The notes under the pieces: generated by a model
Databases searched by the model: none
What the model was told of the DNA's origin: nothing
The model's input: only the letters and a program-made list of their open reading frames with translations
Assembly: GCA_022730075.1 (NCBI GenBank)
Contig: DZBX01000014.1
Location: 8,417 to 32,416 of the forward strand
Source of the DNA: Rhodanobacter sp.
GTDB lineage: Bacteria > Pseudomonadota > Gammaproteobacteria > Xanthomonadales > Rhodanobacteraceae
Length of the DNA stretch: 24,000 nt
Direction: 5' to 3'
Position numbers and translations under genes: made by a program
In this document: positions 8,360-23,740 of the stretch, piece by piece
Layout: each line of letters begins with the position of its first letter
Numbering within the stretch: the stretch's first letter is position 1

Positions 8360-9415
8360 ATGAAAAGAAAGAGCCTTTACGCTCTGATCGCGCTGATCGT
8401 GGCGGGCAGTGGCATCGGTACCGCGCAGGCAGTGGATTATGGCAACTGGTACATCGCGCCGCGGCTTGGCGTGCTGGTGCCCGATTCCAAGCGTGATACC
8501 CAGAATTCGATTCTGGCCGGGCTGGGTGTCGGCTTCTGGGTCAACCCCAAGTTCGCGGTTGATTTCGAGTACACCATCAACGACGCGGACTACAAGAGCA
8601 GTTCGCCTTATGCCACACGTCAGTGGCAGACGCAGAGTGTGGGTGTGACGGGTCGCTATTTCTTGGGCGATGAGCAGGGTTACTCGGGCTGGCGTCCGTA
8701 TGTCGCGGGTGGCCTGGATTTTGTCGGGCATGATGCGTTCATGTCGCGCAATGGCTGGGGTCCCGGCTTCCTCGTTGGTGGCGGCGTACAGCGCGCACTG
8801 ACCGATCGCGTCGCCTTGCGCGGTGAAATCGACTACCGCTGGAACCGCGATACCGTCTCCCTTCCGACCACGAGCAGCTATGGTGACTGGGCCGCGACAC
8901 TGGGTCTGGTGATTTCGATGGCGCCGCCACCGCCGCCACCGCCGCCGCCGCCGCCGGCAGCTGCCCCGCCGCCGCCACCCCCGCCGCCGCCGCCGCCGCC
9001 GGAACCGGCTGCGCACAAGGTGGTCATCGAGTTGCGTGGTGTCAACTTCCAATTCGATCGTCCGCGCCCTGGCCAGACCGATATCAACGGTATTCTTGAC
9101 AAGCCCATCGCCGACTCCGTGGCCATTCTCGATCAGGCCGCGGATACGCTGAAGCGCTATCCGAACGTGGAAATCAAGATCGATGGTTACACCGATTCGA
9201 TCGGCAGCCAGGCCTATAACCTGAAGTTGTCCGACCGTCGCGCCGAGTTCGTCAAGCATTACCTGATCGCGCATGGCGTGGCCGAATCGCAGATCATCGG
9301 CGCCAAGGGTTATGGCAAGCTTGATCCGGTTGCGAGTAACGCTACGGCCGAAGGCCGCTCGCGCAATCGTCGTGTCGAGTTCAAGGTCGAGAACCCGGGG
9401 CAGATGGGGCAGTAA
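8360..9415 (+). CDS. OmpA-family outer-membrane protein (N-terminal beta-barrel, poly-Pro linker, C-terminal OmpA peptidoglycan-binding domain)
   Basis: Signal peptide MKRKSLYALIALIVAGSGIGTAQA. The N-terminal half has an alternating aromatic/Gly beta-barrel pattern. The linker reads P11-AAA-P12-EP. The OmpA_C motifs are FDRPRP...DGYTDSIGSQAYNLKLSDRRAEFVKHYL...NRRVEF. RBS AGGAGA lies at 8349-8354. Confidence 0.85.
   Translation: MKRKSLYALIALIVAGSGIGTAQAVDYGNWYIAPRLGVLVPDSKRDTQNSILAGLGVGFWVNPKFAVDFEYTINDADYKSSSPYATRQWQTQSVGVTGRYFLGDEQGYSGWRPYVAGGLDFVGHDAFMSRNGWGPGFLVGGGVQRALTDRVALRGEIDYRWNRDTVSLPTTSSYGDWAATLGLVISMAPPPPPPPPPPPAAAPPPPPPPPPPPPEPAAHKVVIELRGVNFQFDRPRPGQTDINGILDKPIADSVAILDQAADTLKRYPNVEIKIDGYTDSIGSQAYNLKLSDRRAEFVKHYLIAHGVAESQIIGAKGYGKLDPVASNATAEGRSRNRRVEFKVENPGQMGQ
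8924..9007 (+). repeat. Near-pure CCG/CCA trinucleotide tract encoding the poly-proline linker
   Basis: There are 11 Pro codons (8924-8956), then GCA GCT GCC, then 12 Pro codons (8966-9001), then GAA CCG. All were read directly from the sequence in the ompA-family frame. Confidence 0.9.
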
Positions 9416-10911: not shown

Positions 10912-11826
10912 TCAGCCTGGCCGGTGGATGCGCAGAAGGCCTTCCTGCGCGGTCGATGCGACCAGCCTGCCGTCCTGCGCGAAGATCATGCCGCGCGCCA
11001 GTCCGCGCGCGCCTTGCGCGCTGGGGCTGTCGCAGCTGTACAACAGCCATTCGTCGACCCGGAATGATCGGTGAAACCACAGCGCGTGGTCCAGGCTGGC
11101 CATCTGCACATCGTGGCTGAGATAGGAAATGCCGTGCGGCAGCGTGGCCGTGCCGATCAGGTGGAAATCGGAGGCATAAGCCAGCATCGCGCGTTGCAAT
11201 CGAGCGTCGTCCGGAGCCTTGCCACCAAGTCGAAACCATACTTGCTGATACGGCGGGCGCTTGCTGGGATGCAGTTCGTCGCGCGGGTACACCGGGCGAA
11301 ACTCGAACGGACCGCGCCGTGTCAGCCAGCGCTGCAGTTTCTCCGGCAATTGCGCCAGTTCCTCGGGCGAAATGGTCGCTGCCGGCTCCAGGTCATCGGG
11401 ACCTGGTACCTCGGGCATGGACAGCTGATGCTCGAAGCCCGGCTCGTCGATCTGGAACGAAATCGAGCCGTTGAGGATCGGTTGCCCGTGCTGGATGGCG
11501 AGTACGCGGCGTGAAGAGAAGCTGTGCCCATCGCGCAGGCGCTCGACCTGGTACACGATGGGTGCGCCGATATCTCCGGCGCGCAGAAAATAACCGTGCA
11601 GCGAATGCGCGATGCGCGTGTCATCCACCGTTTGTTGCGCGGCGGCCAGCGCTTGGCCGAGGACCTGGCCGCCGAATACGTAACGCGTACCGATGTCGCG
11701 GCTCTGGCCACGGAACAGGTTGTCTTCCAGGCGCTCGAGGCTGAGCAGCGTGGTCAGTTCATCGGCCAGGGCCTGGGACATGGCGTGCTGCGCGAGTTGC
11801 GGGGGCGCAAGTATAGCGTTGCTCAT
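10912..11826 (-). CDS. tesB: Acyl-CoA thioesterase II
   Basis: Typical TesB sequence: LLSLERLEDNLFRGQSRDIGTRYVFGGQVLGQALAAA...HSLHGYFLRAGD...PIVYQVERLRDGHSFSSRRV. Start is set at the Met at 11826, whose ATG overlaps the HIT gene stop (ATGA on the minus strand). The protein is 304 aa. The track start at 12024 lies inside the HIT gene. Confidence 0.85.
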   Translation of the reverse strand: MSNAILAPPQLAQHAMSQALADELTTLLSLERLEDNLFRGQSRDIGTRYVFGGQVLGQALAAAQQTVDDTRIAHSLHGYFLRAGDIGAPIVYQVERLRDGHSFSSRRVLAIQHGQPILNGSISFQIDEPGFEHQLSMPEVPGPDDLEPAATISPEELAQLPEKLQRWLTRRGPFEFRPVYPRDELHPSKRPPYQQVWFRLGGKAPDDARLQRAMLAYASDFHLIGTATLPHGISYLSHDVQMASLDHALWFHRSFRVDEWLLYSCDSPSAQGARGLARGMIFAQDGRLVASTAQEGLLRIHRPG

Positions 11827-12254
11827 TCCGTGGGCGTGACCAGTCGCAGACGCAGCGCCGCGCACAATGCCCGACCCGCGGTCGGTGCGTAGGGCATGCG
11901 CGTGCCGTGGCCCCAGACCGGGTTCGGCCATGCCGCGTCGTCGCCGCGACGTCCCACTAGATGGATGTGCAGTTGGCGCACGATGTTGCCGAGTGCGCCC
12001 ACATTGAGTCTGTCGCATGGGCACTGCGCGCGCAGTACGCGTGCCGCGCGATCCAGTTCAGCCATCAGCTGCACGCGCGCGCCTGCATCGAGATCGAAGA
12101 TGTCCTCGAGCGCGGGCCGGCGCGGAACAAGCACCAGCCAACCAAAACGGCTGTCGTCCATCAGGCGCACCTCGCACAGCGCGAGCTGCGCCACGGGCAG
12201 GGTATCGGCCGCGAGCCGCGCATCGAGCGTGTATGCAGTGGCCGCGTGCGTCAT
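11823..12254 (-). CDS. HIT-family nucleotide hydrolase/transferase
   Basis: 143 aa with the histidine-triad motif in NIVRQLHIHLVGR. Fits the Hint/diadenosine polyphosphate hydrolase-like family. The gene lies 21 nt downstream of the dienelactone hydrolase gene. Confidence 0.8.
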   Translation of the reverse strand: MTHAATAYTLDARLAADTLPVAQLALCEVRLMDDSRFGWLVLVPRRPALEDIFDLDAGARVQLMAELDRAARVLRAQCPCDRLNVGALGNIVRQLHIHLVGRRGDDAAWPNPVWGHGTRMPYAPTAGRALCAALRLRLVTPTE

Positions 12255-12275
12255 CGTGACGGGTACCAGTCGTGC

Positions 12276-12941
12276 TCAGTTGCCCAGATGCCTGTCGAAA
12301 AACGCCAAGGTGCGCGTGCGTGCCAACTTTGCCGCAGCAGCGTCGTAGCTGGCACGCACATCGCAGTTGAAACCATGATCGGCGTCGTAGACATGGAACT
12401 CGGCGGTCGGGTTGGCAGCGCGTACTTTTTCGCGGTCCGCAGCAGTGATGTGGGCGTCTTTGACGCCGTAGTGGAACAGAAGCGGCGCCGTGGCCTGCAT
12501 GTCGACCAGTTGCGTATTGCGCCCGCCGTAGTAACTCACCGCCGGCATGCCCAGCTTGATCGCAGCCATATAGGCGATGCTGCCGCCCCAGCAGAATCCG
12601 ACCACGCCGATCTTGCCGGCGCTCTTGATTGCCTCGGCGGCGCTGGCGACATCTTCCAGTGGTCGTTCGAAGCCGAGTTCACTGATCAGCGCGAAGCCCT
12701 TTTTCATGCCGGCTTCGTCGTAGCCCAATTCGACACCGGTTTCGAGATGGTCGAACACGGCCGGCGCGATCGCCAGATAGCCCTCGGCCGCGAAATCATC
12801 GACCACGCTGCGGATGTGCGAATTGACGCCGAATATCTCCTGCACCACGACCACGCCGCCTTTCGCCTTGCCCGCTGGCTTGGCCAAGTAGGCGCTGATG
12901 CACTGCGTGCCGGTACTGCCGATGTTGATGAACTCGCCCAT
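12276..12941 (-). CDS. Dienelactone hydrolase family protein (carboxymethylenebutenolidase-like)
   Basis: 221 aa counted from MGEFINIG (cat at 12939-12941). The motifs are VVVVQEIFGVNSHIR, the nucleophile motif GFCWGG and the C-terminal HGF histidine. The track start at 13016 adds a 25-aa Arg-rich extension. Confidence 0.85.
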   Translation of the reverse strand: MGEFINIGSTGTQCISAYLAKPAGKAKGGVVVVQEIFGVNSHIRSVVDDFAAEGYLAIAPAVFDHLETGVELGYDEAGMKKGFALISELGFERPLEDVASAAEAIKSAGKIGVVGFCWGGSIAYMAAIKLGMPAVSYYGGRNTQLVDMQATAPLLFHYGVKDAHITAADREKVRAANPTAEFHVYDADHGFNCDVRASYDAAAAKLARTRTLAFFDRHLGN

Positions 12942-13063: not shown

Positions 13064-14389
13064 ATGTCGCGTTCCGAACCCGCCATTGGCTTCGTCAGTC
13101 TCGGTTGCCCCAAGGCGCTGGTCGATTCCGAGCGCATCCTCACGCAGCTGAAAGTGGAGGGCTATCGCATCGTGCCCAGCTATGCGCAGGCCGATGCCGT
13201 CGTGGTGAACACCTGTGGCTTCATTGACAGCGCGGTGCAGGAATCGCTGGATGCCATCGGCGAGGCCCTGCATGAAAATGGCAAGGTCATCGTTACCGGC
13301 TGCCTGGGCAAGCGCGGCGAGCTGATCCGCGAGGCCTATCCCGAAGTACTGGCGATCAGCGGGCCGCAGGACTACGTCAGCGTCATGCAGGCCGTGCATC
13401 GAGCGCTGCCGCCGCGACGCAACCCGCTGCTGGACATCATCCCGGATACGGGCGTCAAGCTCACGCCGAAGCACTACGCCTACCTGAAGATTTCCGAAGG
13501 CTGCAATCACCGCTGCAGTTTCTGCATCATTCCATCGATGCGCGGCGATCTCGTCAGTCGGCCGGTGGATGAGGTACTGATCGAGGCGGAAAAACTGGTT
13601 GGCGGCGGTGTGCGTGAGCTGCTGGTGATCAGCCAGGACACCAGCGCCTATGGCGTGGACATGAAATACGCCGCGCGCACATGGCGCGGGCGCGGCTACC
13701 GCACACGCATGACCGAATTGTGCGACGGCTTGGCCGAGCTCGGTGCGTGGGTACGGTTGCATTACGTTTACCCGTATCCGCACGTGGACGAACTGATGCC
13801 GATGATGGCTGCGGGACGCCTGCTGCCTTACCTCGACATTCCTTTCCAGCACGCCAGTCCGCGCATCCTCAAGCTGATGAAACGGCCCGGCAACATCGAC
13901 AAAACACTGGAGCGCATCGGCAACTGGCGCAAGCTGGTGCCTGGACTGACGCTGCGCAGCACCTTCATCGTCGGTTTCCCGGGTGAGACCGACGCCGAGT
14001 TCGAGGCCTTGCTGGATTTCCTGCGCGCGGCCCAACTTGACCGTGTCGGCGCCTTCGCCTACTCGCCGGTCGATGGCGCCCACGCCAATGATTTGCCTGA
14101 TCCGGTTCCGGAAGAGCTCAAGGAAGACCGGCTCGAGCAATTCATGACGGTACAAGCCGGGATTAGTGCCACCAGGCTGCAGCGCAAGATCGGCCAGCGT
14201 CTGCGCGTGCTGGTCGACCACGTCGATGCCGAGGGCGCCGTCGCACGCTCCACCGCTGATGCGCCCGAGATCGACGGCGTGGTGCGCATCCGGGATGGCG
14301 TGCACCTTCAGCCTGGCGTCTTCACCGAGGTGATCGTCGATGGCGCGGATGCGCATGACCTGACAGCACGCTGCGGCGCCGCGAGCTGA
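13064..14389 (+). CDS. rimO: Ribosomal protein S12 (Asp88) methylthiotransferase
   Basis: Carries the UPF0004 N-terminal Cys motifs ([23 protein letters not shown]), the radical-SAM CxxxCxxC ([13 protein letters not shown]) and a C-terminal TRAM domain. The protein is 441 aa. Confidence 0.92.
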
Positions 14390-14523
14390 ACTACAACATC
14401 CACTGCCGCAGTTCATTCACGTCATCCTGTCGCGCAGCGCTGCGGCCATCGCGCCTGCTGCAAAGTTCCCAAGCGGCATATCCAGCGCATGCTGAATGGC
14501 TGATCAGCATGTCGCGCCAAAGT

Positions 14524-14544
14524 AACATTACGAATTGTAATGTT
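14524..14544. promoter_or_regulatory. AT-rich perfect inverted repeat (candidate operator) upstream of the sigma-54 activator gene
   Basis: The sequence is AACATTAC-GAATT-GTAATGTT, with 8-bp perfect arms and a 5-nt spacer. It lies about 80 nt upstream of the ATG at 14626 in an otherwise GC-rich region. A second hairpin (CATGCTGA-N8-TCAGCATG) lies just upstream at 14488-14511. Confidence 0.35.
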
Positions 14545-14625
14545 CATGGTTCAGGATTAAGGTTGTTGCCCGCACGCAGCGTGGATGGGCACGCTGCCGG
14601 GCTCGGGACGATGGGGAGACTTACC

Positions 14626-15993
14626 ATGGCTTCAGTGCATCCTCCGGTCGCACGCGATTTCGTGCATTACGGCGCTTTCGCGCCATCAGTGGATAAGGCC
14701 TTGCGCGATGCCGGCTGGAGGCGCGTCGAGGTCGAACAGCTCGAACACGTGCCCGAGGCTCTGCAGCGCCATGATGCCCATGTGGCGCTGCTTGATCTTG
14801 GTGCCGGGCAGGCGCCGATGCTGCGTCGGGTTGAGCGCTTGATTGCCTCGCATCCCGCCACCGAGTGGCTGGCTCATGTCAGCGAGCATGCACTGACCGA
14901 CAAGCACGTATGCGAAGTCATCTATGGCAGCTTTTTCGATTTCTGCACGCAACCGGTGGACATCAATCGGCTACTGGCTGCGCTAGGGCACGCCTGGGGC
15001 ATGGCCAAGCTGGGGCCGCAAGCCGCCAATGCCGAGCAGCAGGCCGCGCTGGGGCTGGATGGCATGGTCGGGACCAGCGCTGCGCTGGTGGAAATGCACA
15101 ATCAAGTGCGCAAACTGGCGGCGGTCAACGTGCCAGTGCTCGTTACCGGCGAATCGGGCACAGGCAAGGAAGTCGCGGCGCGCAATCTGCATCGCCTCTC
15201 GGCGCGCACGCACGGCCCGTTTGTCGCAATCAACTGCGGCGCCCTGCCGGAAAAACTGGTGCAGTCGGAGCTGTTCGGGCATGAGCGTGGCGCCTTCACT
15301 GGCGCCAACGCGCGCAAGATCGGCAAGCTGGAGTCGGCCCAGCAGGGCACGGTATTCCTTGATGAAATCGGCGACCTGCCACTCGACGCGCAAGTCAATC
15401 TGCTGCGTTTCCTGCAGGAAGGCACCATCGAGCGTATCGGCGGCAATGAGCACCTGCGCCTGGATGTGCGCGTCATCGCCGCCACGCATGTCGATCTGGA
15501 GCGCGCCGTGGCCGAAGGCCAGTTTCGCGCCGATCTCTACTACCGACTCAACGTGTTGCGTCTGCGGATGCCGCCGCTGCGCGAGCGCGGACAGGACGCC
15601 GAAATGCTGGCGCGTTATTTCCTCGAGCGCTTCGCGCGCGAACATGGTGTGCGTGCGCGTGGTTACAGTCGCGAGGCGCTCGATGCCATCAGCCTGCATC
15701 CATGGCCAGGCAACGTCCGCGAGCTGATGAATCGCGTGCGCCGCGCGGCCGTGCTATGCGATGGCGGGCTGATCCACGCGCGGGATCTTGAGCTGGAAAG
15801 CGATCTTGCAGAAGGCCGCTGCGCGCCCTCACTGGATCATGCCCGTGAGCAGGCCGAACGCGAATTGATCTGGCAGACGTTGCGCGAGACGCGCCACAAC
15901 ATGAGCGAGTGCGCGCGACGCCTTGGTGTATCCCGCGTCACCCTGTATCGGCTGTGCAAGAAGCTGCAGGTATCCCTCGGCAGCGCTGTCTGA
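14626..15993 (+). CDS. Sigma-54-dependent transcriptional activator (bacterial enhancer-binding protein) with a degenerate receiver-like N-terminal domain
   Basis: The AAA+ sigma-54 interaction domain has Walker A GESGTGKE, Walker B VFLDEIGD and an intact GAFTGA loop (ERGAFTGA). The C-terminus carries a Fis-type HTH (MSECARRLGVSRVTLYRLCKKL). The N-terminal ~120 aa align like a REC domain but lack the N-terminal acidic pair and the conserved Lys (FCTQP instead of KP). Start is set at the ATG at 14626, preceded by GGGGAGA. The protein is 455 aa. Confidence 0.9.
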   Translation: MASVHPPVARDFVHYGAFAPSVDKALRDAGWRRVEVEQLEHVPEALQRHDAHVALLDLGAGQAPMLRRVERLIASHPATEWLAHVSEHALTDKHVCEVIYGSFFDFCTQPVDINRLLAALGHAWGMAKLGPQAANAEQQAALGLDGMVGTSAALVEMHNQVRKLAAVNVPVLVTGESGTGKEVAARNLHRLSARTHGPFVAINCGALPEKLVQSELFGHERGAFTGANARKIGKLESAQQGTVFLDEIGDLPLDAQVNLLRFLQEGTIERIGGNEHLRLDVRVIAATHVDLERAVAEGQFRADLYYRLNVLRLRMPPLRERGQDAEMLARYFLERFAREHGVRARGYSREALDAISLHPWPGNVRELMNRVRRAAVLCDGGLIHARDLELESDLAEGRCAPSLDHAREQAERELIWQTLRETRHNMSECARRLGVSRVTLYRLCKKLQVSLGSAV

Positions 15994-16220
15994 GAGCCGC
16001 AGATGCGCGTCCGGCAGCGCGCAACGCGCGCGGGTTCATGGCGCACTGACCACGCCGGCATCGCGACAAGCCCCACCGGTTGATTCCGCACGTTGCGCTG
16101 CGTTGCTCCGCGCGGCGGGGGCTGCTCGTGAAATCGCCGACCATCCATTTTTCCGAGTCCCGACGTTGCGCCAGCGCCAAATCAGGGCTTCGTGCTGGCG
16201 GCGGACACGTTGTAATGATG

Positions 16221-16320
16221 TCGTGATATGCCTGTTTCATGGCTGCTACAGCCCATTCGAGGACGCCCGCAAGCAATTAGGCCGTTCCCTTGCGATAGGC
16301 ATTCGGCAGGCGTATCACGA
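16221..16320. promoter_or_regulatory. Candidate upstream activator sequences: inverted pair of 12-mers
   Basis: TCGTGATATGCC (16221-16232) and GGCGTATCACGA (16309-16320) are reverse complements at 11 of 12 positions. Their centres lie about 165 and 77 bp upstream of the -24 element. A match of this quality in a 440-bp region is not far from chance expectation by rough estimate, so it is only a candidate. Confidence 0.3.
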
Positions 16321-16390
16321 TCGAGACACTGGCCACCGACTCCGCTAGAAAAACATGCGCAACTATATGATTTATTTGTTTTAAAGTTAT

Positions 16391-16406
16391 TGGCATCAAG
16401 TTTGCT
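16391..16406 (+). promoter_or_regulatory. Sigma-54 (-24/-12) promoter of the fap operon
   Basis: TGGCATCAAGTTTGCT compares well with the consensus TGGCACG-N4-TTGCW. GG (16392-16393) and GC (16404-16405) have the exact spacing. Only positions 6 and 7 deviate. The promoter is followed by RBS AAGGAGAG (16422-16429) and the GTG start at 16434. It sits in an AT-rich tract directly downstream of a sigma-54 activator gene. Confidence 0.75.
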
Positions 16407-16433
16407 TGAAGACATGGGCGCAAGGAGAGTGCC

Positions 16434-16928
16434 GTGATCAAGTTCCCTCGAATATTCATCGGTTCGGTGTTGTTGCTGGCTCTGCTGCTGGTATTGAGCG
16501 TGTTGGCGCTCCCGGTGGAAGCCGCGGGCGCCCGGCGTGGCGTCAATACCAAGCCCGGCGAGTTCGTGTTGGTGCGCGCCGTGCCCGATCGGCACGCGAC
16601 ACGCATGCAAGCGCCAGGGCTGGCCACCATCATTGACCCCAGCGTGCGCCCCGAGATGCGCGGCATGCTCGGCAATCTCGAGTTGGACGACGCGGCGTAT
16701 GCCGCGATCAGCGGTGCAGCGCCGGGCGCCGTGGTCGAAAACGCAGTCGGCGGCGCGCTGCACGGTGCGGATCTGCTGCAAAGCGGCTCCAGTAGTGGCC
16801 GCGTGCCGGCGATCAACTCAGGCGGTCCGGGCGGTGTGCTGGGTAGCATGGGTGGTGCCACGCGCAACATCGGCAATCAGATCACGGGTGCCTTGCAAGG
16901 TGCTGGCGTGATCAAGGGCGGCGGCTGA
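16434..16928 (+). CDS. fapA: FapA-like secreted protein (first gene of the functional-amyloid operon)
   Basis: 164 aa with a GTG start after a strong RBS. The signal peptide is MIKFPRIFIGSVLLLALLLVLSVLALPVEA. The C-terminal half is Gly/Ala-rich and low in complexity. The assignment rests on operon position upstream of fapB (TGATG overlap at 16926-16930), not on motif recognition. Confidence 0.55.
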   Translation: MIKFPRIFIGSVLLLALLLVLSVLALPVEAAGARRGVNTKPGEFVLVRAVPDRHATRMQAPGLATIIDPSVRPEMRGMLGNLELDDAAYAAISGAAPGAVVENAVGGALHGADLLQSGSSSGRVPAINSGGPGGVLGSMGGATRNIGNQITGALQGAGVIKGGG

Positions 16929-17563
16929 TGGTCCGCCTCTTCGCTGTTGCATGTGCTCTGCTGATGCTGGGTCTTTCCACCGCCAAGGCCCAGGACGGTT
17001 ACGCCGAGATGTTGCGTTATCTCACCACCAGCAGCATCGGTGGCAATGCGCTGGCCGGTGCCAGTGGCGCGATTGCGGTGAATCTGGCCGCTGGTGACAG
17101 CAATCTTCAGTCGAACGCAGCGGCATTGGCCATCGGGCCGCTTGCAAATGTCCAGATCGAACAACGCCAGCGCATCAGTGCGCTGAGCGCCAGCGTGCCC
17201 GACGCGATGGTCGCCGACATCAGCGGCAACGCGTTGTCCGGCGCGCGCGGGCTGATTGCCATCAATCAGGCCAGTGGTGTCGGCAATCGCGAGGCCAACG
17301 CCATCGCGGTCGCCGTATCGCTGGCGCAACAAGGTATCGAGGAACAGTCATCCAACGCATGGCTGGCTGGCCTCGGCACGCAGACGGACGGTGCCACGGG
17401 GGATCGTCCGCAGGCCAATCCATCTTCCTCGTCACGTTCGGCGTCCGTTGCGGGTACGGCGTTGCGTGGGGCGGAGGGGGTGGTGCAACTCAATCAGATC
17501 GCCGGGATGGGCAATACCGCGGGCAACCGCCTGCTCATCACGGTTGATCTGCCACCCCGTTGA
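16928..17563 (+). CDS. fapB: FapB-like minor amyloid subunit (three imperfect repeats)
   Basis: 211 aa with signal peptide MVRLFAVACALLMLGLSTAKA. Three repeats carry the Fap signature: GGNALAGASGAIAVNLAAGDSNLQSNAAALA, SGNALSGARGLIAINQASGVGNREANAIAVA and AGTALRGAEGVVQLNQIAGMGNTAGNRLLI. Confidence 0.8.
   Translation: MVRLFAVACALLMLGLSTAKAQDGYAEMLRYLTTSSIGGNALAGASGAIAVNLAAGDSNLQSNAAALAIGPLANVQIEQRQRISALSASVPDAMVADISGNALSGARGLIAINQASGVGNREANAIAVAVSLAQQGIEEQSSNAWLAGLGTQTDGATGDRPQANPSSSSRSASVAGTALRGAEGVVQLNQIAGMGNTAGNRLLITVDLPPR
17036..17137 (+). repeat. FapB amyloid repeat R1 (coding)
   Basis: aa 37-70: IGGNALAGASGAIAVNLAAGDSNLQSNAAALAIG. Confidence 0.75.
17219..17320 (+). repeat. FapB amyloid repeat R2 (coding)
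   Basis: aa 98-131: ISGNALSGARGLIAINQASGVGNREANAIAVAVS. Confidence 0.75.
17447..17545 (+). repeat. FapB amyloid repeat R3 (coding, most divergent)
   Basis: aa 174-206: VAGTALRGAEGVVQLNQIAGMGNTAGNRLLITV. Confidence 0.65.
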
Positions 17564-17598
17564 AAGCTCGACATCATTCCAACGACAGGAGATACAAC

Positions 17599-18951
17599 AT
17601 GCGTAACCTCAAGAAAAACCTGCTGGCTCTGGCTGTTCTGGCCGCAACAGGCGCCATCGCACCTGCGGCGTTCGCGCAGGAGGGTCCGAGTTGCGACGGC
17701 ACCTGCACCGTCAACACGACGGAGAACTACACCCTCGACCAGCAAGACTGGATCCGCAATTACCTGCTCAACGCGAGCGCCTATATCTACGGTGACGTGC
17801 AGTACTACGAGAACGTCGACATCAATACCGACACCTCGATCCGCCGCGTGCGCATGAACAAGGATCTGAGCCTGCTGACCGACGTCAGCATCACCGGAAA
17901 TCCAACCGTCAGCGGCACCATCAACACCGATTCGGCCGCGATCGCCGTGGTCGACAATCGCCAGCACAACGTCTCCAACTATGGCGAGAACTATCTGCTG
18001 GCCAACGATGCATCGATCGCTGATGACGCGGCCCAGAATGCGCAGGGCAATATCGGCCTGAACGTGGCAGCCGGCGACAACAACCAGCAGCACAACGCGG
18101 CCGCATTGGCGGCGGCGGACGCTTCGTTCGCCTTCACCATGGCCGACTCGGAGGTGTTCGTCGAGCAGGTCAACGCCGCCAATACCACCGGCAACTTCGG
18201 CCAGACCAACTCGGCCAACCTCGGCGGCAACGCGCTGCAGGCTGCGCAGGGCAACATCGGTGTCAACATCGCCGCCGGCAACAACAACCAGCAGCAGAAC
18301 AACCTGGTGGCATCGACCGGCACCAACAGCATGGCCACGGCCTCGGTCAACAGCAAGCAGGATTCGGGCGGCAACTACACGCTCAACGAGGGCTACACCC
18401 AGCAGTTCGTGGACTTGATCACCATCAACCTGACCGGCACGGTGGGCGGCAGCGGCGAGGGTGGCCAAGTGATGGGTACCTCCATCGGTACCTCGGACCA
18501 GCGCTACAACATGTACCCGGACAACTGGGGCGTGGCGCAGGGTGAAACACCGACTTCGGCGCATCCGACCGATGGCCCGTGGCTGGGCCACACCGACTGG
18601 GATACCAGCACGCAGGGTACCGACATCAACGGTAACCCGATCGTGCGTACCCCGGGCAACGACCCGATGGATCCCAGCAACGACGGCGGCTCGCTGGTGA
18701 TGAACAACAACGATGAAATCACTCTGGAAGAGATGAGCGCGGCGTTGTCGGGGCAAATCGTCGACTACAGCTATGTCGCGGTGATGACCACCAACACGGC
18801 CTCGCTGAGTGGCTCTGCGCTGCAGAACGCGCAAGGCAACATCGGCGTGAACATCGCTTCAGGCACCGGCAACCAGCAGGCCAACTCCCTCGCGTTGGCA
18901 GTCACCCAGGCTTCTTCGGGTGGCGGCAGCAGCGGTGGCGGGGCTGAGTAA
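17599..18951 (+). CDS. fapC: FapC-like major functional-amyloid subunit
   Basis: 450 aa from the ATG at 17599, preceded by RBS AGGAGA at 17587-17592. The signal peptide is MRNLKKNLLALAVLAATGAIAPAAFA. Three well-conserved repeats share (A/N)LQxAQGNIG(L/V)N(V/I)A(A/S)GxxNQQxN. They are separated by a 34-aa linker and a 162-aa Asn/Gly/Thr/Asp-rich linker. The C-terminus is a Gly/Ser tail. Confidence 0.85.
   Translation: MRNLKKNLLALAVLAATGAIAPAAFAQEGPSCDGTCTVNTTENYTLDQQDWIRNYLLNASAYIYGDVQYYENVDINTDTSIRRVRMNKDLSLLTDVSITGNPTVSGTINTDSAAIAVVDNRQHNVSNYGENYLLANDASIADDAAQNAQGNIGLNVAAGDNNQQHNAAALAAADASFAFTMADSEVFVEQVNAANTTGNFGQTNSANLGGNALQAAQGNIGVNIAAGNNNQQQNNLVASTGTNSMATASVNSKQDSGGNYTLNEGYTQQFVDLITINLTGTVGGSGEGGQVMGTSIGTSDQRYNMYPDNWGVAQGETPTSAHPTDGPWLGHTDWDTSTQGTDINGNPIVRTPGNDPMDPSNDGGSLVMNNNDEITLEEMSAALSGQIVDYSYVAVMTTNTASLSGSALQNAQGNIGVNIASGTGNQQANSLALAVTQASSGGGSSGGGAE
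18016..18117 (+). repeat. FapC amyloid repeat R1 (coding)
   Basis: IADDAAQNAQGNIGLNVAAGDNNQQHNAAALAAA. The nucleotide-level similarity to R2 and R3 is visible (cgcagggcaatatcggcctgaacgtggcagccggcgacaacaaccagcagcacaac). Confidence 0.85.
18220..18318 (+). repeat. FapC amyloid repeat R2 (coding)
   Basis: LGGNALQAAQGNIGVNIAAGNNNQQQNNLVAST. Confidence 0.85.
18805..18903 (+). repeat. FapC amyloid repeat R3 (coding)
   Basis: LSGSALQNAQGNIGVNIASGTGNQQANSLALAV. Confidence 0.85.
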
Positions 18952-18974
18952 TCGCTGATTGATCGACGTATCCG

Positions 18975-19000
18975 GCGGGGCAGTTCGCTGCCCCGCTTTT
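18975..19000 (+). terminator. Intrinsic-terminator-like hairpin between fapC and fapD (candidate intra-operon attenuator)
   Basis: The sequence is GCGGGGCAG-TTCG-CTGCCCCGC followed by TTTT. It forms a 9-bp GC-rich stem (18975-18983 / 18988-18996) with a TTCG tetraloop and a T-run at 18997-19000. It begins 24 nt after the fapC stop and ends 28 nt before the fapD ATG. Confidence 0.6.
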
Positions 19001-19027
19001 CGATCGAATCCAGCGAATCGAGCCTTC

Positions 19028-19741
19028 ATGGACGCCAAAATTCCGTTTGCTGTGTTGTTGGCTTGCCTGCTTGCACCGGGCGGTAGCGGCTCCTTCGCGC
19101 GCGCGGCCGATATTCGCTTCGGCAACGTGCAGCCTACTGGCGAGGTGTATCGCGCCAAGGTCACCAGCCTGCGTGAGGCGCGCTTCACCGGCATCGTGCC
19201 GCAGGCCACCGATTTCAGTTGTGGTGCGGCGGCCCTGGCCACCTTGCTCAAGTACGCCTACGACATCGATGTGGACGAGTGGACGGTGATGGCCGGCATG
19301 CTGGCCAGGGCCGATCCAGGCAAGGTCGAGAAACAAGGTTTCTCGCTGCTGGATATCAAGCAATACGTCGAAGGCCTGGGCATGCGCGGCCGTGGCTACA
19401 AAGTGTCCGAGCCGCGCCTGCGTAGTTTGCGTGTGCCCGGCATCGTGCTGCTGGACACCAAGGGCTACAAACATTTTGTCGTGCTCAAGCGCGTCGCTGG
19501 TGATCGCGTGTATCTGGCTGATCCCGCGCTGGGCAACAAGACGCTGGCATTCAACGATTTCATGGCCGCCTGGCCTTCCAAGGCGGTGTTCGTGGTGATC
19601 GGTTCGGGCTTCAATCGCAATTCGGTGTTGCTGGATGCCAAGGGTGGACCCAGCGCGCGCACGCTGCTGGGTTCGCGTCAGGGCCCGATCACCGATGCCG
19701 AACTGATCGATTTCGGTTTCACCAAAGCCGACCTGTTCTGA
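19028..19741 (+). CDS. fapD: FapD-like periplasmic C39-family cysteine peptidase
   Basis: 237 aa from the ATG at 19028, with signal peptide MDAKIPFAVLLACLLAPGGSGSFARA. The C39-like catalytic residues sit in context: Cys in TDFSCGAAALATLL, His in GYKHFVVLKRV, Asp in VYLADPALG. The gene is fourth in the fap order. Confidence 0.8.
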   Translation: MDAKIPFAVLLACLLAPGGSGSFARAADIRFGNVQPTGEVYRAKVTSLREARFTGIVPQATDFSCGAAALATLLKYAYDIDVDEWTVMAGMLARADPGKVEKQGFSLLDIKQYVEGLGMRGRGYKVSEPRLRSLRVPGIVLLDTKGYKHFVVLKRVAGDRVYLADPALGNKTLAFNDFMAAWPSKAVFVVIGSGFNRNSVLLDAKGGPSARTLLGSRQGPITDAELIDFGFTKADLF

Positions 19742-19801
19742 GCGCGCGCAAGCAGTCGCAGCGTGCAGTCGAGTCGACGCAGCACAACTTGGAGATCCAC
19801 C

Positions 19802-20590
19802 ATGCGCGGCATTCCGACTTTGATTGCACTGGTTCTTGCCACGGTCCTAGCCTTGCCTGCAGCAGCCGATGAGGGCTTGCTGGGCGAACGCGTGCCCACC
19901 GCCACTCAAGACATCCAGCCTGTATCCGATCCTGCCCTCGATGCCATGCGCGGGCGCTTTGTCACCGGCGCCGGACAGGTGCTTTATTTTGGCGTCGAGA
20001 TGCTGTCCACATGGCACAGCCCGGATGGACGCGTACTCAGTGGCAGCGCATTGCTCAGTTTCGATTTTTCCAAAGGCACGCCGCAGGTCAGCTTCGTGCC
20101 AACCGTCAGCATCGTGCAGGGCAGCTCTGGCGGTGTGCTGGTCGATACCAGCCATCGGACGATTGATGCCAGTGGCCTGGATAACGTCAGCGGTATCGAG
20201 CAAGGCATCCAGATCGTCGGCGACTTCAACAGTGCTGGCAACAGCACCGAGCTGCGCCTGACTCACGCCATGCCAACGGGCGCGGGCAACGGCGTCGGCG
20301 CCAACACGGCATTGAGCATGGACGGTGCCAACGCCAGTGCGGCGCTGCAGGCAGACGGCATGGCGGTGACGCTGGGAATCGATGACCAAGGCAGCCTGCG
20401 CCAGATGATCCGTGGCGATGCATCGGGCAATGGCGCAGTGCTGCAAACCGTCGCTCTGCTCGGCGATGGACATGACGTATCCAACCAATTGCGCATCACC
20501 CTGGTGCAGCCGACGCAGGGTTCGAGCCAGTTGCTGCAACAGAGCGTGGCGCAGGCGTTGGGGCAATTGAAGGGCATTGGTGGGCACTGA
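19802..20590 (+). CDS. fapE: FapE-like secreted protein
   Basis: 262 aa from the ATG at 19802, preceded by RBS GGAGA at 19791-19795. The signal peptide is MRGIPTLIALVLATVLALPAAA. The assignment rests mainly on position between fapD and fapF and on size. Confidence 0.55.
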   Translation: MRGIPTLIALVLATVLALPAAADEGLLGERVPTATQDIQPVSDPALDAMRGRFVTGAGQVLYFGVEMLSTWHSPDGRVLSGSALLSFDFSKGTPQVSFVPTVSIVQGSSGGVLVDTSHRTIDASGLDNVSGIEQGIQIVGDFNSAGNSTELRLTHAMPTGAGNGVGANTALSMDGANASAALQADGMAVTLGIDDQGSLRQMIRGDASGNGAVLQTVALLGDGHDVSNQLRITLVQPTQGSSQLLQQSVAQALGQLKGIGGH

Positions 20591-20631: not shown

Positions 20632-22011
20632 ATGACCATGCGCAAGATCAAAACAGGCGCGTTGTTGGCATTGGTGGCAGTGACACTCGCCGCCAGCGCA
20701 TCAGTAGCGGCGCAGCAGACGCAGCAGGCCGGAGGTACCGCCGCCGCCGAGAACACCCAGGACATGCAGGCAATCACCCGCGAGATGCAGGCGCTCAAGT
20801 CGCGTTACGCTGACGAAGTCCGCAAGCTGCGCGAGTTGGAGATCCGCTTGCAGGCGCTGACCGCGCGCGTGCAGGCGCAGGAGGGCGTGGCGCGGGTACA
20901 GGCTATTCAACAGGGGGGCAAGCCCGCAGCCACGACTGGCATGGCAGGTGTTGGCGTGGCGGCGGGGGCGGCACAGGCAGCAACCGCGACCAGCAGCAGT
21001 GAAACGCTGGTCAGCAGCGAGGGCAGCACGCGCCAGGAGCCCACATCGCGCAGCGTCGAGGATGTATTGCAGCAGAAGCATGTGCTGTTCAACCAGCCAT
21101 TGACGCTCGAAGTCGGCCTCAACTACGCGCGATACGACCGCAAGCAACTCACGCTCAACGGGTTCCTCGCCCTCGACGCGATATTCCTTGGCAGCATCGC
21201 GGTCGAGGATGTCGCATCCGACACATTCACTTATACCTTTGCCGCGCGCAAAGGCATCACCCGCGACCTTTCCGCCAGCATCGAAGTTCCCATGGTGCAG
21301 CGCTGGACCACCTACCAGAAAGGCGGTGCCGGCGGCTCAGCGGCCGCTGTGGCCGAGGCTGGCGTGGGCGGTGATGTGGCCATCGGTGATGTCACCGCAG
21401 GCGCAAGTTATCGCCTGTTTCCAGAGACAACCGCGCGGCCTGAAATCGCTCTCAATGCCAGCGTCGGCATGCCCACCGGACAGGCGCCTTACGGCATTCC
21501 ATGGACCGTGCTCGAGCGCGACAACGACGACTTCATCCGCTTCGCTGTGCCGACCAAACAGCCCACCGGGCAGGGCGTGTGGAGCATCAACTTTGGCGCT
21601 TCGATGTTGAAAACACTGGATCCGGCAATCCTGTTCGCCAATGCCAGCGTCACCCATACCTTCAAAAAGCACTTTTCCGATCTGGATAACAGCCCGGATA
21701 CGGTCAGCCCGGGCAAGGTCGACCTCGGCAACGCGCTCAACTACGGTATCGGCGTGGCCTTTGCCTTGAACGAGCGCATGAGCCTGAGCATGAGTTTCTC
21801 GGAGCGGCTCAACAGCAGTGCCAGGATTCGCCCCGATGCTACCGGCGTGTGGCAAGGCATCATCGGCAGCTCCGGCAACGCTGCGACATTTGGCATCGGC
21901 ATGACCTATGCGCTCAGCGAAAGCATGACTTTTGTGGGCAATCTGGGCATCGGCCTGACACCCGACGCACCGGATTTCAGCATCACCGCCAAGCTGCCGT
22001 TCACACTGTGA
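20632..22011 (+). CDS. fapF: FapF-like outer-membrane amyloid-secretion channel (N-terminal coiled coil plus C-terminal beta-barrel)
   Basis: 459 aa with signal peptide MTMRKIKTGALLALVAVTLAASASVAA. A heptad-like coiled coil (QDMQAITREMQALKSRYADEVRKLRELEIRLQALTARVQAQ) is followed by an Ala/Gly/Ser-rich linker. After that comes about 300 aa with an alternating beta-strand pattern ending ...ITAKLPFTL. This architecture matches what is established for Pseudomonas FapF. Confidence 0.75.
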   Translation: MTMRKIKTGALLALVAVTLAASASVAAQQTQQAGGTAAAENTQDMQAITREMQALKSRYADEVRKLRELEIRLQALTARVQAQEGVARVQAIQQGGKPAATTGMAGVGVAAGAAQAATATSSSETLVSSEGSTRQEPTSRSVEDVLQQKHVLFNQPLTLEVGLNYARYDRKQLTLNGFLALDAIFLGSIAVEDVASDTFTYTFAARKGITRDLSASIEVPMVQRWTTYQKGGAGGSAAAVAEAGVGGDVAIGDVTAGASYRLFPETTARPEIALNASVGMPTGQAPYGIPWTVLERDNDDFIRFAVPTKQPTGQGVWSINFGASMLKTLDPAILFANASVTHTFKKHFSDLDNSPDTVSPGKVDLGNALNYGIGVAFALNERMSLSMSFSERLNSSARIRPDATGVWQGIIGSSGNAATFGIGMTYALSESMTFVGNLGIGLTPDAPDFSITAKLPFTL

Positions 22012-22209: not shown

Positions 22210-23115
22210 ATGCTAGACCTGAACATCGAATTCAAGCTCGACCACATTCATTGCCACGACGAGGGCGATGGCCCTGGCAACGCGGAGCCCTACCTTTGGA
22301 CCGTCTTCTTCAAGGTCGATGGCGACACCCTCGTCGTCAACTCCGACGGTCCCATCGCGCCATTCTTACAGGGCGCACCGACGGTGATCGGAACTCCGGG
22401 CAACCACGGCAACCTAGGCACCACCGATGTGGATGAAGGGGATGACGTGGGCGTTCCAGCGATCATCGGCGAATACCGTACGATCATGAAACCCATACCG
22501 CTGACGACACCCATTCTCGGTCTGTCGGAAGTAAGCGGAATGATCGGGTGCATCGTGGTGTTGATGGAGGAAGACAACACCCCATCCTCCGACATCGCGC
22601 GCGGCCATGAGGCGCTCGATAGCAAGGTCCGCGACAAACTCGCGGAAGTCCTCGGGACGCTGAGCATTAGCAAAACTGAACCGACTGAGGAAGACATCGC
22701 GGCCCTCACCGATCAGATCGGGAATGCTGTGAAGAGCGCCATCGGCGACGGCGTGAACGTCTTCGAGTGGATTTTCGGCTTCGGCAACATGGACGATCAG
22801 ATCGGGAGTGCCGTCTTCCGCTTCTCACACAAACAACTCGAAGAGTCGGGTGGTGTGGCCATCCCATTCAGTCGGAGATGGGAGAACGAAGGTGACTGGG
22901 AACTCTTCGGCCACATCAAGGCCACAGCCATCCGTCGCCAAGAGCCAAAGTGCTGCGACGAGCTGAAGCGGAAAGTAAAGGAACTGGAGCGCACCCTAGC
23001 CGAGCAAGGAAAGCGTCTCGGCAAAATAGAGGCAGATCTAGAGGCGCAAGCCAAAGGCTTTGCATCCGCCATAGTCCGCGCGAAGGCTACAGCAAAACCA
23101 ATGAAACGCGGGTAG
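22210..23115 (+). CDS. Hypothetical cytoplasmic protein: ~250-aa globular domain plus C-terminal coiled-coil/basic tail
   Basis: 301 aa with no signal peptide. The composition is coding-like (MLDLNIEFKLDHIHCHDEGDGPGNAEPYLWTVFFKVDGDT...). The C-terminus CCDELKRKVKELERTLAEQGKRLGKIEADLEAQAKG is heptad-like. I recognise no family. GC is lower than in the core genes. Confidence 0.65.
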   Translation: MLDLNIEFKLDHIHCHDEGDGPGNAEPYLWTVFFKVDGDTLVVNSDGPIAPFLQGAPTVIGTPGNHGNLGTTDVDEGDDVGVPAIIGEYRTIMKPIPLTTPILGLSEVSGMIGCIVVLMEEDNTPSSDIARGHEALDSKVRDKLAEVLGTLSISKTEPTEEDIAALTDQIGNAVKSAIGDGVNVFEWIFGFGNMDDQIGSAVFRFSHKQLEESGGVAIPFSRRWENEGDWELFGHIKATAIRRQEPKCCDELKRKVKELERTLAEQGKRLGKIEADLEAQAKGFASAIVRAKATAKPMKRG

Positions 23116-23275
23116 TCCGTGGCCCAACAAGGCGCTCCAGCCGACGGTCTTGCCTCCGCTTCGCTGCGGCAAGCCCGCAGTTGAGCTTGGGCGTCACAAA
23201 GCACAGTGCCGGCGCGAAGGCTCCGCCACTCCAACCGCGGCTCTTAGCTGCTTCAACACTCCTGAGGAAAGCACG

Positions 23276-23740
23276 ATGAGCGCAACGCGAGTGCTGGTTG
23301 TCTTCGCCATGGCGACGGTGATTCTTGCCGCCGGTCCAAAGTTCAGTGCGTTCGCGGCAGCGCCGCCGCCGAATCCCTGCAAGCTTGTCACAGTGCCGGA
23401 GATGCAACAGATCGTCGGACCACTCAAAGAAGCGCCTACAGCCACTGACCCATCAACGGGTGAGATCAGCTGTACCTTTCGTCCTAGCAAGGGATTGAAC
23501 TTTGTTGAAATCAGTTTGCACGACGGCGACCTCACGGCGTGGAAGCGCAGGAATGGCGGAAAGAACCCGGAGGCAGCATCAGAGTTCGGAAGTGGTTCCT
23601 TCGTTACACCCGACTTCGAGGGCTTCGCGGAGCTCTACGCGAAGAAGGAGGGCCTAGTCTTGCGCGTGAGTGCTCCCAAGGGCGCTCAGTCGGTCGAGGT
23701 CGTCAAGGCAATAGCCAGAAAGGCTCTCCCGCGTCTGTAG
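23276..23740 (+). CDS. Small secreted protein of unknown function
   Basis: 154 aa from the ATG at 23276, preceded by RBS GAGGAAAG at 23264-23271. The signal peptide is MSATRVLVVFAMATVILAAGPKFSAFAAA. The mature protein has two Cys residues (NPCKLVT, EISCTF). The track start at 23150 is an upstream extension. Confidence 0.6.
   Translation: MSATRVLVVFAMATVILAAGPKFSAFAAAPPPNPCKLVTVPEMQQIVGPLKEAPTATDPSTGEISCTFRPSKGLNFVEISLHDGDLTAWKRRNGGKNPEAASEFGSGSFVTPDFEGFAELYAKKEGLVLRVSAPKGAQSVEVVKAIARKALPRL

Follow-up and report, generated by a model that had tools for sequence, protein, structure and literature searches.

The 24,000-nt stretch of Rhodanobacter sp. contig DZBX01000014.1 analyzed here (hereafter the window) carries the amyloid operon fapABCDEF and, upstream of it on the same strand, a gene encoding a sigma-54 enhancer-binding protein (EBP). 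Our analysis suggests, with a probability that we place at roughly 0.8, that this arrangement represents the BrfA-RpoN-fap module of Pseudomonas fluorescens in its Xanthomonadales form, and that the cis-encoded sigma-54 activator very probably drives a -24/-12 promoter located in front of fapA (Table 1). Such a circuit was the core claim of an earlier note on this DNA, and it is strongly supported by the conservation of linkage, promoter and enhancer sites across approximately 75 loci and by the homology of the EBP to the characterized BrfA regulator.

Predicted promoter, enhancers and activator of the fap operon

Related fap loci were retrieved with a FapF alignment, using one genome per species and the best 80 genome matches. 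The resulting 79 loci, designated here by L numbers, belong almost exclusively to the Xanthomonadales/Lysobacterales, with the addition of Guyparkeria and Halothiobacillus. The -24/-12 promoter that the earlier note had placed directly before fapA was confirmed in the window, where it constitutes the only exact match to TGGCAY-N5-TTGCW on either strand (0.08 expected) and sets the predicted transcription start at around 16417. In the related loci, the 450 nt preceding fapA were scanned for the GG-N10-GC element that best fits TGGCACG-N4-TTGCW, and an element matching at least 10 of 12 positions was identified in 70 of 75 fap loci, at 25-90 nt from the projected fapA start. This element was usually the single best match across the whole 20-kb locus, and a seeming exception to the pattern, L009, has TGGCATCGCTCTTGCC on inspection.

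The regions upstream of these promoters are enriched in the 8-mers TGTAACAG, GGTGTTACA and TGATACAG. The enhancer motif derived from 70 of the loci presents palindromic instances of the form xxTGTWWCA-N4-TGWWACAxx, clustering approximately 155-180 and 72 nt upstream of the -24 element. Its half-site, TGWWAC[AG]SS, is about 120 times denser between positions -250 and -30 than elsewhere in the loci (11.1 vs. 0.09 per kb); at least one copy of the strict half-site occurs in 57 of 68 loci. When the window was scored with a 22-nt matrix trained on the other loci only, the three best scores all fell on two sites upstream of fapA. The first of these predicted enhancers (UAS1) ranks highest in the window and starts 160 nt upstream of the -24 element, in agreement with the conserved cluster at -155 to -180, and the second (UAS2) starts 82 nt upstream of it, in agreement with the conserved site near -72; its score was reached by 2 of 300 shuffled intergenic sequences. 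Two previous enhancer candidates, an initial guess comprising three TCGTGAWAY copies and an inverted repeat (16221-16234/16307-16320) that merely overlaps the two matrix sites, were superseded by the comparative motif.

An AT-rich tract separates the proximal enhancer from the promoter, and similar tracts occupy the equivalent place in L002 and L083. Enhancers, AT-rich tract and promoter follow one another in the order customary for sigma-54 promoters, and IHF may bind and bend the DNA at this tract, which contains an IHF-like site. The promoter-distal half of the intergenic region contains three copies of a GC-rich repeat, ACGTTGCGC/GCGCAACG(C), spanning 16019-16171, two of them direct, 73 nt apart, and one inverted; these copies lie outside the conserved enhancer motif. 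No unusual fold was detected in 15985-16215 (z = +1.3), and a riboswitch or small RNA was rejected as a candidate since the region between the EBP gene and fapA returned no Rfam match at E-values up to 1.

Pfam searches and inspection of the sequence confirmed that the gene upstream of fap encodes, as the earlier note had claimed, an EBP with an intact GAFTGA loop and a Fis-type helix-turn-helix (HTH). The protein encompasses an N-terminal VpsR domain, a Sigma54_activat domain (aa 147-313, 1e-69), AAA_lid_14 and HTH_8, an architecture common to all of its 120 best homologues, the closest named ones being from Rhodanobacteraceae, and comparison of its N-terminus with homologues supports the start at 14626. 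Besides GAFTGA, the Walker A and B motifs (including the Walker B DE pair) and the arginine fingers R301 and R307 are intact. Among 75 fap-linked EBPs, nearly all present the GAFTGA loop, nine of them with Ser for the first Ala and one with Asp for the second Gly, and the Walker A and B motifs, R301, R307 and R365 are conserved.

Approximately 80 nt upstream of the EBP start, in an AT-richer patch, lies a 21-nt palindrome (AACATTAC-GAATT-GTAATGTT, 14524-14544), which recurs with GGATT as its center upstream of the 83%-identical EBP of L001 (8622-8642). This palindrome does not match the fap enhancer matrix and has no -24/-12 element nearby; as a candidate operator, it may control the EBP gene.

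The circuit has a characterized counterpart in P. fluorescens PF07, in which the fapA-E promoter is of the -24/-12 type and was mapped by 5' rapid amplification of cDNA ends (5'-RACE), and in which brfA and rpoN deletion mutants lose fap expression (Guo 2022, PMC9207406). The published brfA is a 1,326-bp gene positioned convergently to fap (PMC9207406). No Pseudomonas locus figured among the best 80 genome matches described above. A search with the FapF of Pseudomonas sp. UK4, rebuilt from a PDB alignment, reached two P. fluorescens loci (L083 and L084), both with a 441-aa EBP that contains VpsR and Sigma54_activat domains and is convergent to fapF, consistent in length and position with brfA. 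Guo et al. 2024 are said to have defined three enhancer sites with the consensus CA-N4-TGA(A/T)ACACC; reportedly, deletion of the receiver domain activates BrfA, and c-di-GMP (cyclic di-GMP) stimulates its ATPase. Upstream of fapA in L083 we identified CA-CTTT-TGAAACACC, CTGTTTCA-TCAC-TGATACAAC and CTGTTTCA-GGGT-TGAAACACC, followed by CGGCACGCCTTCTGCT, and these three sites fit that reported consensus. Furthermore, the Xanthomonadales-derived matrix has its best scores upstream of fapA in both Pseudomonas loci.

The L083 and window EBPs share 48% identity over 428 aa (aa 25-449, E-value 1e-123). On the basis of this identity and of the common motif in L083 and L084, the window EBP is a predicted BrfA-type regulator targeting the same DNA motif; its putative orthology to BrfA is based on synteny and similarity, with L083 standing in for the PF07 protein by length and position. 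Like the BrfA systems of PF07 and SBW25, the window combines a VpsR-type N-terminal domain, a sigma-54 AAA+ domain and an HTH domain with linkage to fapA-F, with a -24/-12 promoter ahead of fapA and with the enhancer motif TGTTTCA-N4-TGAWACA at similar distances. It differs from them in its two clear enhancers, in contrast to the three of L083, and in its host, which is acid-tolerant and Rhodanobacteraceae-like.

Table 1. Coordinates of the activator gene, the fapA control region and the fap genes in the window.
Feature	Position	Strand	Evidence or remarks
BrfA-type EBP gene, 455 aa	14626-15993	+	Pfam and homology to P. fluorescens EBP
VpsR-type receiver-like domain, aa 8-121	14647-14988	+	PF20161, 5e-16
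GAFTGA loop, sigma-54 contact, aa 222-227	15289-15306	+	Read from sequence
Fis-type HTH, aa 407-442	15844-15951	+	PF02954, 5e-12
Predicted enhancer UAS1, CCTGTTTCA-TGGC-TGCTACAGC	16231-16252	palindrome	Top window score, 17.6 and 13.9 bits (two strands)
Predicted enhancer UAS2, GGCGTATCA-CGAT-CGAGACACT	16309-16330		Third-best window score, 13.1 bits
AT-rich tract	16345-16390		26% GC vs. ~65% around; presumed DNA-bending region
IHF-like site, AATCATATAGTTG	16360-16372	-	Between proximal enhancer and promoter
Sigma-54 -24/-12 promoter, TGGCATCAAGTTTGCT	16391-16406	+	Read from sequence; GG 16392-16393, GC 16404-16405
fapA	16434-16928	+	GTG start, signal peptide; ribosome-binding site AAGGAGAG at 16422-16429
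fapB	16928-17563	+	NCBIfam Fap model
fapC	17560-18951	+	NCBIfam Fap model
fapD	18959-19741	+	NCBIfam Fap model; Peptidase_C39
fapE	19763-20590	+	NCBIfam Fap model
fapF	20632-22011	+	NCBIfam Fap model

Linkage between the activator gene and the fap operon

In 72 of the 80 locus entries, fap is accompanied by an adjacent, full-length homologue of the EBP (45-70% identity), which answers affirmatively the earlier question of whether the activator gene is adjacent to fap in related genomes. Seven of the eight remaining entries end short on one flank. The position of the EBP gene varies: it lies downstream of fapF on the opposite strand in 59 Xanthomonadales loci, as it does in Pseudomonas, upstream and divergent in about ten (the S. 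maltophilia group), and upstream on the same strand in five distinct loci (the window, two Mizugakiibacter metagenome-assembled genomes (MAGs), L009 and Guyparkeria). In the window, 440 nt separate the EBP gene from fapA. The persistence of linkage across three gene orders points to a functional tie and to selection on linkage, in preference to an inherited order.

Several side observations concern the same linkage. In L018, a Rhodanobacteraceae MAG, two EBP paralogues flank fap, one upstream and divergent (3750-5081) and the other downstream and convergent (11356-12654). In Mizugakiibacter sediminis (L003, 10001-12656), on a contig that stops short of the remaining operon, the gene for a 60%-identical EBP is oriented convergently to a gene whose identity to FapF is only 27%; a regulator of the same type could here control a Fap-like or Fil-like secretion system that has diverged. 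The contig labelled Nocardiopsis yanglingensis (L075, JBJNRH010000003.1) presents a fap locus, EBP and promoter practically identical to their counterparts in the Stenotrophomonas maltophilia group, and is probably a contamination of the actinomycete assembly.

Linkage is nevertheless broken in both directions among close relatives, and the earlier description of the activator as dedicated to fap is not demonstrable. On the one hand, the EBPs of four relatives (L001, L085, L086 and L087) lack an adjacent fap operon. Three of them (L001, L086 and L087) share the genes upstream in the window, encoding a pseudouridine synthase, a thioesterase, a dienelactone hydrolase and a radical-SAM enzyme, and their nucleotide homology to the window stops at approximately 15970, around the EBP stop. 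A kinase/decarboxylase fusion gene follows the EBP gene after 67-145 nt in these relatives (L001 10083-10149; L086 2159-2303; L087). With homology ending at the EBP stop, the fap operon therefore behaves, jointly with the 440-nt region that controls it, as a block of at least 8 kb that is either present or absent. On the other hand, the fap operon of L004 (5380-11284) shares 73-82% identity with that of the window (FapF 82%) and has a -24/-12 promoter at 5629-5644 and enhancer-like sites at 5467-5499 and 5545-5566 (approximately -150 and -84), and no EBP gene was found in the 5.6 kb upstream or the 10 kb downstream of fap. The retention of promoter and enhancers at a distance from any such gene implies regulation in trans. 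The simplest reading is that, in relatives whose fap operon lacks a neighboring EBP gene, the same regulator acts in trans, and that the fap block, running from approximately 15994 to beyond the end of the window, is an insertion/deletion polymorphism beside the EBP gene.

These observations could also be accommodated by an EBP that acts as a broader biofilm regulator with other genomic targets, and whose adjacency to fap stems from the insertion or translocation of the fap block. The flanks of L001, L086 and L087, which match the window up to the kinase/decarboxylase fusion and lack fap, together with the similar arrangement in L085 and the unaccompanied operon of L004, favor this possibility. 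However, strong matrix sites occur in the window only upstream of fapA, linkage is the rule among the locus entries, and the enhancers retained by L004 fit the same EBP acting in trans, not another regulator. We hence deem a broader regulator possible but on the unlikely side, and it would in any case be compatible with fap as a direct target of the EBP.

The NCBIfam Fap models confirmed fapB-F. Their matches all fall below the equivalog cut-offs, and that of FapA is weak (E-value 6e-4), but the assignment of fapA is backed by its position and by its conservation in L004 and L002, the L004 protein being 73% identical to that of the window with the same start context. Proteins of Metallibacterium scheffleri match the window FapF at 100% identity, which assigns the DNA to this species. 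FapC comprises 463 aa, versus 244 and 277 aa for the proteins at the FapC position in two Pseudomonas loci. Start and stop codons overlap between fapA and fapB (16925-16931) and between fapB and fapC (17560-17563), which suggests translational coupling of both gene pairs.

Two same-strand open reading frames (ORFs) follow fapF (22210-23740; 301 and 196 aa). They lack both a convincing family match and a counterpart in L001, L002, L004, L006 or L009, and may belong to the inserted block. Further upstream in the window, a secretin-containing cluster of the type II secretion or pilus type (70-4286; Secretin and Secretin_N, with a weak match to T2SSC) and an OmpA-family gene (8360-9415) are unrelated to fap regulation.

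Probable regulatory input of the activator

The putative regulatory input of the EBP is its N-terminal domain. The earlier note had described this domain as receiver-like and devoid of the acidic pair and conserved Lys, and alignment to PhoP and VpsR (7v2b, 7y19) bears this out: H14-Y15-G16 replace the acidic pair and Q109 the Lys. The phospho-acceptor Asp itself, D57, is present. Because the acidic pair and the Lys are missing, classical phosphotransfer is unlikely, and the protein departs from classical NtrC-type phosphorylated response regulators in lacking a complete receiver active site. The position equivalent to D57 is occupied by Asp in 73 of 75 fap-linked EBPs and by Arg in both P. 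fluorescens BrfA orthologues.

The most likely input for the window EBP, solely by homology to BrfA, is c-di-GMP. Sensing of this second messenger by BrfA is reported in the passages of PMC13101488 and of bioRxiv 10.64898/2026.01.27.702051 (SBW25) that cite Guo 2024. The earlier note had instead raised c-di-GMP on account of the KEVAARN sequence (aa 181-187), which fits the KExxxRN element of the c-di-GMP site of P. aeruginosa FleQ. The AAA+ domains of both proteins are indeed homologous (257 bits; FleQ structures 5exx and 8p53), the post-Walker-A KEVxARN is identical, and FleQ R185/N186 align to R186/N187. However, FleQ has a different N-terminal domain, its R144 and E330 align to D145 and Y331, and its R334 aligns to R335, a residue also present in ZraR. 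The absence of an LFRS element, acknowledged in the earlier note, was thus corroborated, R144 being the Arg of that element and its position being variable across fap-linked EBPs. The two proteins would also respond in opposite directions, since c-di-GMP inhibits the FleQ ATPase and, according to the citing passages, activates that of BrfA.

The RN pair was also profiled in 75 fap-linked relatives. Only 5 of them present the Asn and 32 the Arg, and the BrfA orthologues carry AKM or AKT in place of the ARN of the window. It follows that a FleQ-type pocket is unlikely to be the c-di-GMP sensing mode of fap-linked EBPs; on the FleQ alignment and this profile it was rejected as a family feature, and it cannot ground a c-di-GMP prediction. 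The RN pair of the window is instead a clade-specific feature; in a speculative reading to which we give little credence, the Metallibacterium/Mizugakiibacter clade, alone in having acquired this FleQ-like Arg-Asn pair, could bind c-di-GMP in a manner unlike BrfA.

The conservation of D57 raises the possibility that the same circuit responds to another input, in which Asp57 (through phosphorylation or acetyl phosphate, in line with reports on VpsR) or a partner protein acts in place of, or together with, c-di-GMP. The near-universal Asp of the Xanthomonadales-type EBPs points in this direction, as does the affinity of the N-terminal domain, which is nearest to the receiver domain of VpsR, a protein whose activity depends on D59. 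Against it stand the missing residues of phosphotransfer chemistry, the failure to find a histidine kinase gene (no HisKA or HATPase_c domain among the 24 window ORFs scanned) and the response of BrfA, the only characterized member, to c-di-GMP as described in the citing passages. On these grounds we regard a different input as rather doubtful. A related and more speculative scenario, to which we give little credence, is that BrfA-type regulators outside Pseudomonas may be two-input devices, of which the Pseudomonas BrfA, with its Asp to Arg substitution, would be a simplified derivative.

Comparison with other c-di-GMP-related activators further delimits the type of regulator encoded in the window. 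The EBP resembles Vibrio cholerae VpsR, a biofilm-matrix regulator that binds c-di-GMP, in its N-terminal PF20161 domain, in the Asp equivalent to D59 and in the absence of the conserved Lys. The resemblance is restricted to that domain: VpsR, according to PMC6158489, lacks the sigma-54 contact residues and uses sigma-70 RNA polymerase, whereas the window EBP has intact GAFTGA, Walker B and arginine finger motifs and a -24/-12 target promoter, and none of the degenerate sigma-54 and ATPase motifs of the VpsR-like sigma-70-dependent class. A literature search aimed at the residues with which VpsR binds c-di-GMP returned none. BerB from Burkholderia cenocepacia is set apart by its description, as it lacks an N-terminal regulatory domain and controls the regulator gene berA for exopolysaccharide, not amyloid (PMC5552954).

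Proposed circuit and its significance

The weakest alternative to activator-driven transcription, namely a fortuitous -24/-12 match, with sigma-70-dependent transcription of fap or read-through from the EBP gene, can appeal to the 8 of 100 window shuffles with one exact TGGCAY-N5-TTGCW match somewhere and to the lack of a terminator-like hairpin between the EBP stop and fapA, which makes read-through physically possible, but it is highly improbable given the recurrence of the element at an equivalent position in 70 of 75 loci, including those in which the EBP gene lies downstream or on the other strand and read-through is impossible, the absence of any sigma-70-like promoter in 14300-16600, and the 5'-RACE mapping of the homologous P. 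fluorescens promoter. Neither a sigma-70 promoter nor a terminator between the EBP gene and fapA was found, and both were rejected as candidates.

A number of points weigh against the assignment of the window to a BrfA-RpoN-fap module. The window promoter matches 10 of 12 positions of TGGCACG-N4-TTGCW (TGGCAT, then C for G), slightly below most relatives, and the right arm of UAS2, CGAGACACT, is degenerate. EBPs 83-90% identical to that of the window occur in L001, L085, L086 and L087 apart from fap. As regards the signal, the FleQ-type binding residues are not conserved among fap-linked EBPs, the c-di-GMP step is drawn entirely from the 48% homology to BrfA, and the retention of Asp57 where the Pseudomonas BrfA has Arg indicates that the input may differ. 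Lastly, the circuit is predicted in this organism from sequence, and rpoN is not among the window genes.

In the circuit that we infer for this organism, comprising EBP binding, sigma-54 dependence, the role of IHF and the identity of the signal, an EBP oligomer would bind the two palindromic enhancers, and the AT-rich, IHF-like tract would let the DNA bend towards the promoter. The EBP ATPase, in contact with sigma-54 via GAFTGA, would then open the closed complex at the -24/-12 promoter, with transcription of fapABCDEF starting near 16417. The VpsR-type receiver-like domain would act as the regulatory input, keeping the ATPase off until the signal, most likely c-di-GMP by homology to BrfA, rises, and amyloid production would thereby be tied to a biofilm signal.

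The circuit is very probably real and is well conserved, but it is not new. The earlier note had presented a cis-encoded sigma-54 activator as an addition to the textbook description of Fap regulation; RpoN/BrfA-dependent fap transcription was published for PF07 in 2022 (PMC9207406), and BrfA-RpoN-c-di-GMP control of Fap is already on record for P. fluorescens. The present analysis contributes the enhancer motif conserved across the loci, with its two predicted sites in the window, evidence for the module beyond Pseudomonas, its variable gene order and the Asp/Arg difference in the receiver-like domain.

The activator, the -24/-12 promoter and the enhancer motif accompany fap in Stenotrophomonas maltophilia, Luteimonas, Rhodanobacter, Guyparkeria and Metallibacterium. 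Given this spread across the Xanthomonadales and their relatives, the module looks ancestral to the Fap system, and not a peculiarity of Pseudomonas. The enhancer matrix provides concrete sites for mutation and a tool for finding further targets of the regulator, and the presence of Asp or Arg at the receiver site offers a natural comparison for the study of how this regulator is switched. Should the Asp be functional, whether by way of phosphorylation, of acetyl phosphate or of a contact that depends on charge, as proposed for VpsR, amyloid output would combine the c-di-GMP input with a second signal, of metabolic or stress origin. Furthermore, the analysis names a candidate regulator of the matrix amyloid for fap-carrying opportunists such as S. 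maltophilia.

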